From assembly GCA_041660305.1 (NCBI GenBank), contig JBAZWO010000006.1, positions 16,432 to 80,431 of the forward strand: DNA of 64,000 bases. Direction: 5' to 3'. The notes under the pieces were generated by a model, which had not been told where the DNA came from, searched no databases, and worked only from the letters and a program-made list of their open reading frames with translations. The stretch is from Patescibacteria group bacterium. Lineage in GTDB: Bacteria > Patescibacteriota > Patescibacteriia > UBA9570. The position numbers and the translations under genes are program-made. This document shows positions 50,819-52,914 of the stretch, piece after piece. Within the stretch, counting starts at the first letter, position 1, and every line of letters begins with the position of its first letter.

Positions 50819-51658
50819 ATGTTTAGACAGGAAGTTAGTGTACAAACTAAGGTAATTACTCCACCAACGACGTTGTTGAGTTTGAATATTAAGGAATTTT
50901 GGCGCTTTCGTGAATTGTTCTATATTTTTGTTTGGCGTGATGTTAAGGTGCGATACAAACAAACAATGTTAGGGATTGCTTGGGCTGTGTTTCAGCCATT
51001 AGTTACCATGCTAATTTTTACGGTTTTTTTTGGAAATTTGGCCAAAATTCCTTCTGATGGAGTACCATACCCCATTTTTGTGTATGCTGGGTTATTGTTA
51101 TGGAATTATTATTCAGTAGCTTTAACTAACATTAGCACGGTATTGGTGGCACAAGAAAGCATTATTAAGAAAGTTTATTTTCCTAGATTGATATTACCAT
51201 TAGCTACCGCTTTAACACCAACGATAGATCTGGTGTTTTCTTTTTTTGTATTTATTGGTTTAATGTTTTATTTTCATTTTGTACCACATGTATTAGGTAT
51301 TGTGATTATGCCGGTGTTGATTTTTTTTACATTTCTTAACGCAGCTGGCTTGGGCTTATTTTTGTCGTCACTAAATGTAAAATATCGTGACGTGCAATAC
51401 ATTGTTCCTTTTTTTATTCAAATATTATTATTTGTTACCCCTGTGATTTATCCAGTAAGTATGATTCCGGCAAAATATACTTGGTTAGCCTGGTTAAATC
51501 CTATGGCGGGTATTATTACTACAGCGCGTGCTACTTTACTTGGCGGTCCAATACAATTTTGGCCAGTAGTATTTACAATAGGGTTGTGTTTATTTTTATT
51601 TTTATTTGGGATAGTATTTTTTAGAAAAACTGAACGTTTTTTTGCTGATATTTTATGA
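50819..51658 (+). CDS. wzm: ABC-2 type polysaccharide exporter permease (Wzm/TagG type), copy 2
   Basis: WRDVKVRYKQT, NVKYRDVQY and six TM segments. It is collinear with 23631-24452. Confidence 0.9.
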   Translation: MFRQEVSVQTKVITPPTTLLSLNIKEFWRFRELFYIFVWRDVKVRYKQTMLGIAWAVFQPLVTMLIFTVFFGNLAKIPSDGVPYPIFVYAGLLLWNYYSVALTNISTVLVAQESIIKKVYFPRLILPLATALTPTIDLVFSFFVFIGLMFYFHFVPHVLGIVIMPVLIFFTFLNAAGLGLFLSSLNVKYRDVQYIVPFFIQILLFVTPVIYPVSMIPAKYTWLAWLNPMAGIITTARATLLGGPIQFWPVVFTIGLCLFLFLFGIVFFRKTERFFADIL

Positions 51659-52914
51659 ATAAACCAGTTATTACCATTGAACACGTTAGTAAACGATATA
51701 GTCTAAACAGGGTAGCACTTGATAATACGTTGCGCGATAAAATTACGCACGCGCTTTATAAACGTAATGAGCCCAAGCAGTCTGCTAAGGTGGATTTTTT
51801 AGCATTGCAAGATATTAATCTAACTGTTCAACAAGGAGAAACGTTAGGAATCATTGGTCGTAATGGTGCGGGTAAAAGCACATTGTTAAAAGTACTATCA
51901 CAAATTACACCTCCAACTGCAGGGAAAATTACGTTATGTGGGCGAGTGGCTAGTTTGTTAGAAGTAGGCACAGGCTTTCATCCAGAGTTAACTGGGCGGG
52001 AAAATATTTTTCTTAATGGGGCAATATTAGGTATGACTCGTAAAGAAATTAATAAAAAATTTAATGACATTGTTACTTTTGCGGAAATCGAACAATTTAT
52101 TGATACGCCAGTTAAACGTTATTCTAGTGGTATGTATGTTCGTTTGGCGTTTGCTGTAGCCGCTCAACTTGAACCGGAAATTTTAATTATTGACGAAGTT
52201 TTGGCCGTCGGAGACATTCAATTTCAAAAAAAATGTCTTGGTAAAATGGGCGAAGCAGGCAAGCAAGGAAGAACAGTAATTTTTGTTAGCCACAACATGA
52301 ATGCGATTGAACAATTGTGTCGGTCTTGTGTATGGTTAGATCATGGCATGGTTAAAGCACATAGCAATAATGATGTATCGAGTGTTATTAAAGCGTATGT
52401 GGCAGAAAGTCTAGACAAAACTCAGGCTACCCAGTGGGTGAATAATAACAATGAATTTGCTAATCAATGGTTTACACCATGTAAATTTTATTTAGCTGAT
52501 GCTTATGGTAAAGCGCTTATATTACCACATAGTAATAATAAAGAAGCTTGGGTTCATATTGAAGGCGATATTACAGAAAGTGATACAGCCTTAACTATTG
52601 GTTATGCGATTTATTCCATGGAAGGCAATTTGTTATACTGGTCTTATCAAACTGATCAATCAGAATCTCAATGGCCAAAACTAAAGTTGGGCAAAATTAA
52701 GTTACGCAGCGCTTTACCCCAACGTTTTTTAAATGAGGGTGATTATCGAATAGAGCTTATTTCTAGTTTACATTTTCGACAATGGTTATGTGAGCCAGGC
52801 GTGCATACCCCTACTATATTTTTATCTATTCAAGGTGGTTTGAGCGATTCACCTTATTGGTTAGCTAAACGACCTGGTTTATTAGCGCCGGTTTTGCCAT
52901 GGGAACAATACTAA
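51655..52914 (+). CDS. wzt: polysaccharide ABC exporter ATP-binding protein with extended C-terminal domain (Wzt/TagH type), copy 2
   Basis: [18 protein letters not shown] and [11 protein letters not shown]. The N-terminal 250 aa closely resemble copy 1, while the C-terminal roughly 170 aa are unrelated by eye. Confidence 0.9.
   Translation: [419 protein letters not shown]

Follow-up and report, generated by a model that had tools for sequence, protein, structure and literature searches.

Two divergent Wzm/Wzt exporters in one glycan gene island of a Patescibacteria group bacterium and their predicted roles in the export of two differently capped surface glycans

Introduction

In the glycan export systems studied so far that depend on ATP-binding cassette (ABC) transporters, a carbohydrate-binding domain (CBD) on the ATPase Wzt goes together with a chain-terminating cap and is needed for export of the terminated polymer only (PMC11231755, PMC9445017). 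In this study, we analyzed a 64,000-nucleotide stretch of DNA from a Patescibacteria group bacterium (assembly GCA_041660305.1, contig JBAZWO010000006.1, positions 16,432 to 80,431; hereafter, the window), in which two pairs of the permease Wzm and the ATPase Wzt, designated as Wzm1/Wzt1 and Wzm2/Wzt2, are encoded in one glycan gene island of about 45 kb. We found that both pairs are complete at the sequence level and that their CBDs belong to very different subfamilies of one fold, and we consider it fairly likely that they are two independent, functional export systems that give rise to two differently capped surface glycans.

Three diderm systems provide the structural frame for comparison. 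WzmWzt from Aquifex aeolicus (7K2T, 8DKU, 8DKY, 6O14) resembles both copies in architecture and matches their nucleotide-binding domains (NBDs) at E 4e-60, and its CBD is the best structural match of the Wzt1 CBD (TM-score up to 0.76; profile E 4e-6), with about 20% identity to Wzt1 and 13–15% to Wzt2. However, its pocket residues Thr346, Ala348, and His350 are not conserved in the alignment with the Wzt1 type, and its host is a diderm with lipopolysaccharide (LPS), whereas the organism of the window is probably monoderm. In Escherichia coli O9a and Klebsiella pneumoniae O3, the terminator WbdD adds a methyl-containing cap that is read by the CBD (PMC3482155, PMC11231755). This CBD (2R5O) is the top Foldseek match of the Wzt2 model (E 9e-6; 14–16% identical). 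Unlike in that system, neither a WbdD-like kinase nor a coiled-coil ruler was detected in the window, and the methyltransferases present are of the FkbM type, one of them fused between two glycosyltransferase (GT) modules of family GT4. The CBD of Raoultella terrigena and K. pneumoniae O12 (5HNO/5HNP) has the common fold and is among the top matches of both models, but the cap in these strains is a beta-Kdo residue (Kdo, 3-deoxy-D-manno-octulosonic acid) added by a GT99 domain, whereas the window shows no Kdo transferase or Kdo synthesis gene.

Monoderm systems are closer in gene content. The S-layer glycan (slg) clusters of Geobacillus stearothermophilus NRS 2004/3a and Paenibacillus alvei resemble the window in their monoderm hosts, low guanine-plus-cytosine (GC) content, and Wzm/Wzt genes near a multi-domain GT-methyltransferase protein. 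This protein, WsaE, combines a methyltransferase with two glycosyltransferases, makes a 2-O-methyl cap, and is encoded beside wzm-wzt, and the P. alvei cluster carries the AsnB homologue WsfA (PMC2943079); an AsnB-like gene is also present in the window. Unlike in the slg clusters, Pfam and NCBIfam searches of the window and its flanks detected neither a WsaB-type oligosaccharyltransferase nor a WsaP/WbaP-type initiator or an S-layer gene, the domain order is GT-methyltransferase-GT instead of methyltransferase-GT-GT, and there are two exporters instead of one. TarGH/TagGH and the mycobacterial galactan Wzm-Wzt have homologous NBDs and permeases and serve monoderm or mycolate envelopes; however, TarH-type and mycobacterial Wzt proteins lack a C-terminal CBD, and the window proteins score far below the NCBIfam equivalog cut-offs of these families.

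Results

Layout and integrity of the two exporter pairs

The components of the two exporters are as follows.

50819..51658, plus strand: Wzm2, ABC-2 permease of exporter 2, 279 amino acids (aa) (Pfam ABC2_membrane, E 5e-22, profile positions 2-210/211)
51655..52914, plus strand: Wzt2, ATPase with C-terminal CBD, 419 aa (NBD by Pfam ABC_tran, E 2e-23); NBD at ~51655-52353, hinge helix at ~52375-52416, beta-sandwich CBD at ~52432-52911
23631..24452, minus strand: Wzm1, ABC-2 permease of exporter 1, 273 aa (Pfam ABC2_membrane, E 5e-20)
22371..23627, minus strand: Wzt1, ATPase with C-terminal CBD, 418 aa (NBD by Pfam ABC_tran, E 6e-24); NBD at ~22923-23627, CBD at ~22374-22856

In each pair, the permease gene adjoins a co-oriented ATPase gene: the end of wzm2 overlaps the start of wzt2 by 4 bp, and wzm1 lies upstream of wzt1 with a gap of 3 bp. 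The pairs are 26.4 kb apart on opposite strands and are divergently transcribed; the coordinates, gene order, orientation, and spacing of about 26 kb given in an earlier note on this DNA match the open reading frame (ORF) listing. The Walker A, signature, Walker B/D-loop, and H-loop (FVSHN) motifs are intact in both NBDs, and the closest relatives of the ATPase in the PDB are A. aeolicus Wzt, followed by TarH/TagH and mycobacterial Wzt. The earlier note had raised the possibility that one pair is non-functional; at the sequence level, both pairs have intact ORFs, full-length domains, and intact ATPase motifs. By gene content, both exporters are complete Wzm/Wzt (ABC-2, type V) pairs, which are predicted to transport polyprenol-diphosphate-linked glycans.

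Exact-sequence look-ups found the window proteins in two NCBI metagenome-assembled genomes (MAGs) labelled as Patescibacteria group bacterium (with proteins MFA5995935.1 and MFA6387935.1) and in JGI, ENA, and Logan assemblies, the source samples being JGI 3300014208, ENA ERZ27249449, and SRR6484324. Both wzt genes lie on one 83,307-bp contig. In the second MAG, a 36,284-bp contig has one end within wzt1 and the other within the dehydroquinate synthase gene (DHQS), and the distance between the two is exactly that in the window; the linkage of wzt1 and wzt2 is therefore independently supported. The second assembly broke inside wzt1, leaving a 199-aa NBD partial on the 36,284-bp contig and a 195-aa CBD partial on a 17,481-bp contig. 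This break is not explained by a long repeat, given that wzt1 and wzt2 share no exact match longer than 19 nt; one possible cause would be strain variation where the NBD and CBD meet.

Similarity of the ATPases and permeases

The N-terminal ATPase parts of Wzt1 and Wzt2 are 66% identical (159/240; E 5e-112), and Wzm1 and Wzm2 are 48% identical (E 3e-96), as determined by BLASTP. The long identical run reported earlier was found again as a 33-aa stretch, but the description of the cores as near-identical did not hold: foreign-lineage NBDs from 160 collected loci show a median identity of 60% and a maximum of 68–69% to either window copy, so that 66% is an ordinary level for the Wzt clade, and the 33-mer with at most three substitutions occurs in 67 foreign ORFs among these loci. 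At the DNA level, the NBD-coding regions are 74% identical over 527 bp; the same codon is used at 79 of 161 identical NBD residues, and the codons differ at 20 of the 33 positions of the identical stretch. We considered a recent in-genome duplication or gene conversion and discarded it on the basis of these codon differences. Because the synonymous sites are diverged, the NBD identity is attributable to family-wide purifying selection, and the divergence of Wzt1 and Wzt2, judged from the sequences, is old. The foreign NBDs nearest to Wzt2 come from loci with a Wzt1-type C-terminal domain; CBD type does not track NBD relatedness, which suggests that, in the course of evolution, CBDs were shuffled with respect to NBDs.

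Sequence and predicted fold of the C-terminal domains

Beyond about residue 235, the C-terminal portions (~170 residues) of Wzt1 and Wzt2 show no BLASTP similarity. The earlier note, which saw no similarity after about residue 250, was correct to this extent, but its description of the two domains as unrelated was not supported by profile comparison. When a 56-sequence Wzt2-C family was aligned by hhalign with a 153-sequence Wzt1-C family (the latter from an exhaustive search of representatives), the match had a probability of 97.1% and E 5.8e-11 over 134 columns at 9% identity, and with the shared hinge helix removed, the beta-sandwich alone still matched (probability 95.2%, E 2.6e-8). The Wzt2-C family against a lone Wzt1-C sequence gave a probability of 1% and E 0.05. 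The Wzt2-C family profile also aligns through the A. aeolicus CBD.

Residues 265-389 of Wzt1 pass the Pfam Wzt_C model (PF14524; gathering threshold 30.4 bits) with 53.3 bits and E 3.7e-14, and 36 of 48 homologues of the Wzt2 CBD match Wzt_C at E<=1 (best 3.3e-7). The Wzt1-C family profile matched the A. aeolicus CBD (7k2t, E 4e-6; 6o14, E 9e-5) and, weakly, the Raoultella CBD. AlphaFold2 (AF2) models of the CBDs had predicted local distance difference test (pLDDT) values of 81.9 for Wzt1 and 88.5 for Wzt2. In Foldseek searches of the PDB, ranks 1–17 for the Wzt1 model were all Wzt CBDs (E 2e-7 to 3e-6), and ranks 1–12 for the Wzt2 model were 2r5o, 8dky/6o14, 5hno, and full-length A. aeolicus Wzt (E 9e-6 to 4e-4); the solved Wzt CBDs in these ranks are those of E. 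coli O9a (2R5O), A. aeolicus (6O14/8DKY), and R. terrigena (5HNO/5HNP). Homologous as they are, the two domains thus have a fold closest to the solved Wzt CBDs, and not the loss of a carbohydrate-binding fold that the earlier note had envisaged as a refutation. Phmmer searches of the PDB with the isolated C-terminal domains gave no meaningful match, and NCBIfam has no specific model for either CBD. In both monomer models, the chain closes with a beta-strand that follows a loop of low confidence, and this is compatible with C-terminal strand exchange in a dimer.

The invariant residues of the two families are entirely different, as expected for different ligand specificities; those of the Wzt2 type are W29, D102, N128, E135, W145, W170, and R174, and those of the Wzt1 type are R30, D32-G35, D144, W145, and H177. 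Aromatic and polar residues of the kind typically seen in sugar sites are conserved in both families. When the Wzt1-type profile is aligned, the Trp conserved in its motif TDW lines up with Trp362 of A. aeolicus, which is the lid of the 3-O-methyl pocket (PMC9445017). Taken together, sequence profiles and models identify both C-terminal domains as Wzt-type jelly-roll CBDs, which are remote homologues of very different subfamilies with predicted glycan binding, in line with their earlier assignment as Wzt carbohydrate-binding modules.

Distribution and gene context of the two CBD types

For comparison, 80 of 133 genome loci found with a Wzt2-type CBD were kept (CBD identity about 40–57%), and 80 metagenome loci with a Wzt1-type CBD were collected (29–40%). 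We had initially taken the Wzt1-C family to be rare, with two and then six word-based matches; this was overturned by the exhaustive search, which returned thousands of matches, a count inflated by the NBD tail included in the profile. Hosts of the Wzt2 type include Nitrospirota, Bacteroidota, Planctomycetota, Acidobacteriota, Chloroflexota, Verrucomicrobiota, Bacillota, Desulfobacterota, and Saccharibacteria as well as methanogenic archaea, among them the isolate Methanosarcina spelaei, and overall the type occurs at 40–59% identity in more than 15 bacterial phyla and the candidate phyla radiation (CPR). Most of its members have no precomputed Pfam Wzt_C annotation (loci L003-L082, e.g., L065, L060, and L051 from Mucilaginibacter).

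A wzm gene lies upstream in 68 of the 80 Wzt2-type loci, and homologues of the GT2 (52927), GT4 (53733), and GT11 (54905) genes that follow wzt2 in the window occur in 42, 12, and 23 of them, respectively. Among loci of at least 10 kb, GT11 was found in 20 of 64 of the Wzt2 type versus none of 22 of the Wzt1 type (Fisher p=0.002). Homologues of the GDP-mannose 4,6-dehydratase (gmd) and GDP-fucose-synthase-like (fcl) genes of the window, at 50% identity or more, occur in 16 and 12 Wzt2-type loci versus three and one Wzt1-type loci. Window-like gene orders were found in Anaerolineaceae (L060; Wzm-Wzt-GT2-GT11-GT4) and M. spelaei (L065; gmd-fcl-Wzm-Wzt-GT2). Because GT11 and the GDP-fucose genes associate with the Wzt2 type, system 2 is assigned to a widespread Wzm-Wzt-GT2-GT11 module, whose product is probably a fucose- or 6-deoxyhexose-containing glycan.

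In 25 of 71 Wzt2-type loci, the 2.5 kb downstream of wzt hold genes for small methyltransferases, which belong to at least three families (DUF268/MT11, FkbM, and MT11); the count follows a simple cluster-membership rule that misses fused methyltransferase domains. In Wzt1-type loci, methyltransferases (Methyltransf_24, MT11) often follow immediately downstream. Two CBD-bearing Wzt genes within 10 kb of each other were found in L060 (9284-10552 and 14006-15256) and L112 (203-1435 and 9653-10534); in L131 (8689-9951 and 10748-11032), the second ORF is merely short and CBD-like. The second copy has a much more divergent CBD. Paired CBD-bearing Wzt genes are thus uncommon, but not unique.

Operons surrounding the two exporters

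Gene spacing and Pfam assignments place each exporter in a tightly packed operon of its own. System 2 runs on the plus strand from 44068 to 57780 in the order NTP-transferase, GT2, GT4-FkbM-GT4, 656-aa membrane protein, Wzm2, Wzt2, GT2, GT4, GT11, and GT2-GT4 fusion.

44914..45684, plus strand: GT2 near the head of the operon (Glycos_transf_2, E 5e-31; gaps to neighbors 0-15 bp)
45685..48723, plus strand: GT4-FkbM-GT4 protein, 1012 aa (Pfam: two Glycos_transf_1/GT4 modules and Methyltransf_21 at residues 470-610)
48789..50759, plus strand: orphan polytopic membrane protein, 656 aa, directly upstream of wzm2 (~13 transmembrane segments predicted by hydropathy scan)
52927-53730, plus strand: GT2 downstream of wzt2 (Pfam)
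53733-54908, plus strand: GT4 downstream of wzt2 (Pfam)
54905-55735, plus strand: GT11 fucosyltransferase-family protein downstream of wzt2 (Pfam)
55720-57780, plus strand: GT2-GT4 fusion downstream of wzt2 (Pfam)

The FkbM domain of the 1012-aa protein spans residues 434-613 (~46984-47523), and the gene is located two upstream of wzm2. With a domain logic like that of WsaE (PMC2943079), this protein is a candidate polymerase/terminator of system 2.

System 1 runs on the minus strand from 33845 to 17720. Two PMT_2-like GT-C proteins, a GT2, a 195-aa protein, a HAD phosphatase, and a GT1-type transferase are followed by an FkbM gene embedded on the plus strand and then by FkbM, GT4, Wzm1, Wzt1, an AsnB-like protein, GT2, and a 651-aa membrane protein.

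27614..33845, minus strand: upstream part with the GT1-type transferase, HAD phosphatase, 195-aa protein, GT2, and two tandem PMT_2-like GT-C proteins (Pfam)
26554..27612, plus strand (opposite within system 1): second FkbM-family methyltransferase, 352 aa (Methyltransf_21, E 3e-9; NCBIfam fkbM_fam weak)
25776..26504, minus strand: 242-aa FkbM methyltransferase, the candidate for adding the cap in system 1 (Methyltransf_21, E 1.4e-13)
24516..25757, minus strand: GT4 directly upstream of wzm1 (Glycos_transf_1, E 1.4e-29)
20538-22340, minus strand: AsnB-like amidotransferase downstream of wzt1 (Pfam)
19678-20601, minus strand: GT2 downstream of wzt1 (Pfam)
17720-19675, minus strand: orphan 651-aa membrane protein downstream of wzt1

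The upstream ORFs overlap or sit 3 bp apart, the genes downstream of wzt1 (17720..22340) are tightly spaced or overlapping, and the two PMT_2 paralogues are 41% identical. All three FkbM domains that had been reported near the exporters were found (25776-26504, minus; 26554-27612, plus; and inside 45685-48723, plus). The 242-aa FkbM gene is located two upstream of wzm1, and its product and the FkbM domain of the 1012-aa protein share 32% identity. The glycosyltransferases of systems 1 and 2 are 23–32% identical between the systems.

Genes for precursor supply lie next to system 1.

15708..17710, plus strand: GDP-mannose 4,6-dehydratase and GDP-fucose-synthase-like epimerase/reductase (GDP_Man_Dehyd, E 4.5e-153; Epimerase, E 1.7e-65), a pair probably supplying GDP-6-deoxyhexose

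The membrane protein beside each exporter had suggested a pair of paralogous ligases; this idea found no support: the 651-aa and 656-aa proteins share no detectable similarity, and neither has a match in Pfam, NCBIfam, or the PDB. The 656-aa protein may, we infer, be an extracytoplasmic transferase or ligase. Elsewhere, a family of ~683-aa membrane proteins is encoded directly upstream of wzm/wzt in 12 of the 80 Wzt1-type loci (e.g., L104, 6763-8814). The two orphans belong to a set of five polytopic proteins with 8–13 predicted transmembrane segments (13031-14596, minus; 17720-19675, minus; 33893-35584, plus; 38073-39215, plus; and 48789-50759, plus), one of which lies beside each exporter; none matched Pfam, NCBIfam, or the PDB, and they show no detectable mutual similarity. 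They may be novel GT-C transferases, ligases, or polymerases and could hide a WsaB/WsaP-type function.

Host and envelope

Described members of the CPR/Patescibacteria are monoderm (PMC8871954). No WaaL/Wzy_C-type ligase, Lpx, or Lpt protein was found by Pfam among the window ORFs or in the flanks of about 10 kb at each end, which hold housekeeping genes (e.g., MurD, glutamate racemase, and chorismate synthase); a tRNA scan found no tRNA. The O-antigen frame in which the exporters had been placed earlier is therefore unlikely, given the monoderm label of the group and the lack of LPS and WaaL-type genes in the window and flanks, and the S-layer and cell-wall glycan clusters of Gram-positive bacteria are a better fit. 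The GC content is 0.27–0.36 across both systems in the 45-kb island versus about 0.39–0.41 in the flanking housekeeping genes.

Other genes in the window

A 706-aa protein (40045-42165, minus) consists of a domain with nine transmembrane segments (weak GT87) fused to a phosphoribulokinase/uridine-kinase-like domain (E 1e-55 to NCBIfam PRK07429, short of the cut-off of that model). It is accompanied by genes for GtrA, a class II aldolase, an inositol-monophosphatase-like protein, a LigT-like phosphoesterase, and two MobA-like NTP-transferases (neighbor coordinates, 39240-40040, 42125-42544, 42604-43224, 43188-44021, 35581-36462, and 44068-44898), and the set looks like an unusual sugar-phosphate or pentose modification pathway. 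A GT2 gene overlapping a gene for a small DUF2304 membrane protein (14641-15701, plus) lies beside an orphan protein with 10 transmembrane segments (13031-14596, minus), resembling a three-component extracytoplasmic glycosylation module, and similar GT2 and GT-C pairings recur at 30010-33845.

A complete-looking shikimate/chorismate set begins at 57936-63033 (plus) and continues in L163/L164. It comprises 3-deoxy-D-arabino-heptulosonate 7-phosphate (DAHP) synthase with a ferredoxin-like domain, dehydroquinate (DHQ) synthase, and fusions of 5-enolpyruvylshikimate 3-phosphate (EPSP) synthase with shikimate kinase and of type I dehydroquinase (DHQase I) with shikimate dehydrogenase, after which come chorismate synthase and chorismate mutase. 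CPR genomes usually lack amino-acid biosynthesis, and such a set is unexpected there. A 517-aa protein (1876-3429, plus) combines Radical_SAM, Radical_SAM_C, and GNAT domains in an Elp3-like architecture, which is uncommon in bacteria. A KilA-N domain protein (3534-4352, plus; E 4e-23) is encoded just upstream of the housekeeping and glycan region; KilA-N proteins are often associated with phages or mobile elements.

Discussion

The CBDs of Wzt1 and Wzt2 belong to very different subfamilies, and each pump is therefore expected to accept its own capped product alone, which would amount to two glycans. Given that each pump lies in its own operon with glycosyltransferases and an FkbM enzyme, and that methyltransferases neighbor such pumps elsewhere, two capped glycans are the most reasonable reading, with the FkbM enzymes as the likely cap-adders or terminators. 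The cytoplasmic glycosyltransferases of each system would build a polyprenol-linked glycan, and a methyltransferase would add a terminal cap and stop elongation: the free-standing FkbM enzyme in system 1, and the FkbM domain between two GT4 modules in system 2. The jelly-roll CBD of the cognate Wzt would then bind the cap and license export through the Wzm channel, for which there is mechanistic precedent (PMC11231755, PMC9445017, PMC2943079). Because the host is most likely monoderm, protein, peptidoglycan, or a lipid anchor would be a more probable acceptor of the exported glycans than lipid A, and the glycans may be decorated further outside the membrane by the GT-C-like proteins and the GT2/GtrA/DUF2304 modules of the island.

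Several observations weigh against this reading. We infer the cap chemistry, the ligand specificity of the CBDs, the existence of two distinct polymers, and the final acceptor by analogy, and ligand binding by either CBD is likewise drawn from analogy with the studied systems. Wzt2 itself scores 14.5 bits (E 0.035) against Wzt_C, under the gathering threshold, and the TM-scores of its Foldseek matches are moderate (0.5–0.66). A methyl cap is not universal for the Wzt2 CBD type, with a recognised methyltransferase near 25 of 71 loci only. The Patescibacteria label is the annotation of the MAG depositors. In addition, the window and the ~10-kb flanks yielded no initiating phosphoglycosyltransferase, ligase, LytR-CpsA-Psr (LCP) enzyme, or S-layer gene, and the pathway is incomplete there.

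The alternative that fares best is that the two pumps carry a single polymer, or polymers that hardly differ, made by common glycosyltransferases, with alternative terminal modifications, for instance as glycoforms or depending on conditions. The location of all genes in one continuous 45-kb island with common precursor genes (gmd/fcl at 15708-17710 and several NTP-transferases) and the paralogy of the FkbM domains would fit such a single backbone. However, each pump has its own GT2/GT4 set, only distantly similar to that of the other, the GT11 association is specific to the Wzt2 type, and the permeases are merely 48% identical; on balance, we regard a shared backbone as unlikely.

It is somewhat less probable still that the CBDs keep the Wzt_C fold but read no cap and serve in regulation, dimerization, or protein docking, in which case their divergence would be silent on the number of glycans. 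The analogical basis of ligand specificity and the non-significant Wzt_C score of Wzt2 leave room for such a role, and Foldseek also lists beta-sandwiches of NPC2, GM2 activator, and RhoGDI with somewhat weaker scores. On the other hand, each Wzt CBD studied so far goes along with a terminated glycan and is needed for export (PMC11231755, PMC9445017), residues typical of sugar sites are found in both families, the TDW Trp of the Wzt1 type coincides with the methyl-lid Trp362 of A. aeolicus (PMC9445017), and methyltransferase genes are frequent immediate neighbors.

An assembly or binning artefact, in which the systems of two organisms were joined or the contig is not from Patescibacteria, appears very improbable. 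The taxonomic label comes from the depositor alone, horizontal transfer of glycan islands is common, and many phyla carry the Wzt2-type module; however, assemblies from NCBI, JGI, ENA, and Logan contain identical proteins, the 83,307-bp contig carries both copies, an independent contig of 36,284 bp runs from wzt1 past wzt2, and the GC content is uniformly low across both systems. Finally, a recent duplication followed by replacement or decay of one C-terminus, leaving one pair redundant or non-functional, could be read from the 66% NBD identity and the 33-aa identical run but is scarcely credible, considering that half of the identical residues differ in codon, the longest exact DNA match is 19 nt, foreign NBDs are equally similar, both ORFs and all motifs are intact, and both CBD types have large conserved families elsewhere.

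We therefore return to two independent exporters with two differently capped glycans as the reading to be preferred. The export mechanism belongs to the textbook knowledge on ABC-transporter-dependent glycans; the novelty lies in the host and in two smaller points, namely the CBD clade represented by Wzt2 and the mismatch between CBD and NBD relatedness. Among the papers covered by a literature search, none linked Patescibacteria with Wzt or O-antigen. We tentatively suggest, as a possibility that we hold with considerable doubt, that the Wzt2 CBD (motif GGLSDSPYW) may represent a clade of cap-reading modules in its own right, one with unusually strong conservation, which would point to one conserved, probably fucose-type, and often methyl-capped terminal epitope across bacteria and archaea. 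This clade may already be catalogued among the ABC-transporter-associated carbohydrate-binding modules. Missed by the Pfam threshold, conserved across domains of life, and linked to GT11, it is a concrete family in which to seek a new cap specificity.

CPR/Patescibacteria have tiny genomes, most of them lack cultured members, and next to nothing has been learned of their surface chemistry. An island of about 45 kb with two cap-checked exporters predicts two surface glycans of defined length, which may serve in host attachment or as phage receptors. If the conserved clade and the second glycan are real, about 45 kb of a very small genome would be devoted to them, and these glycans would be prime candidates for the determinants of host attachment or phage reception in an episymbiont.

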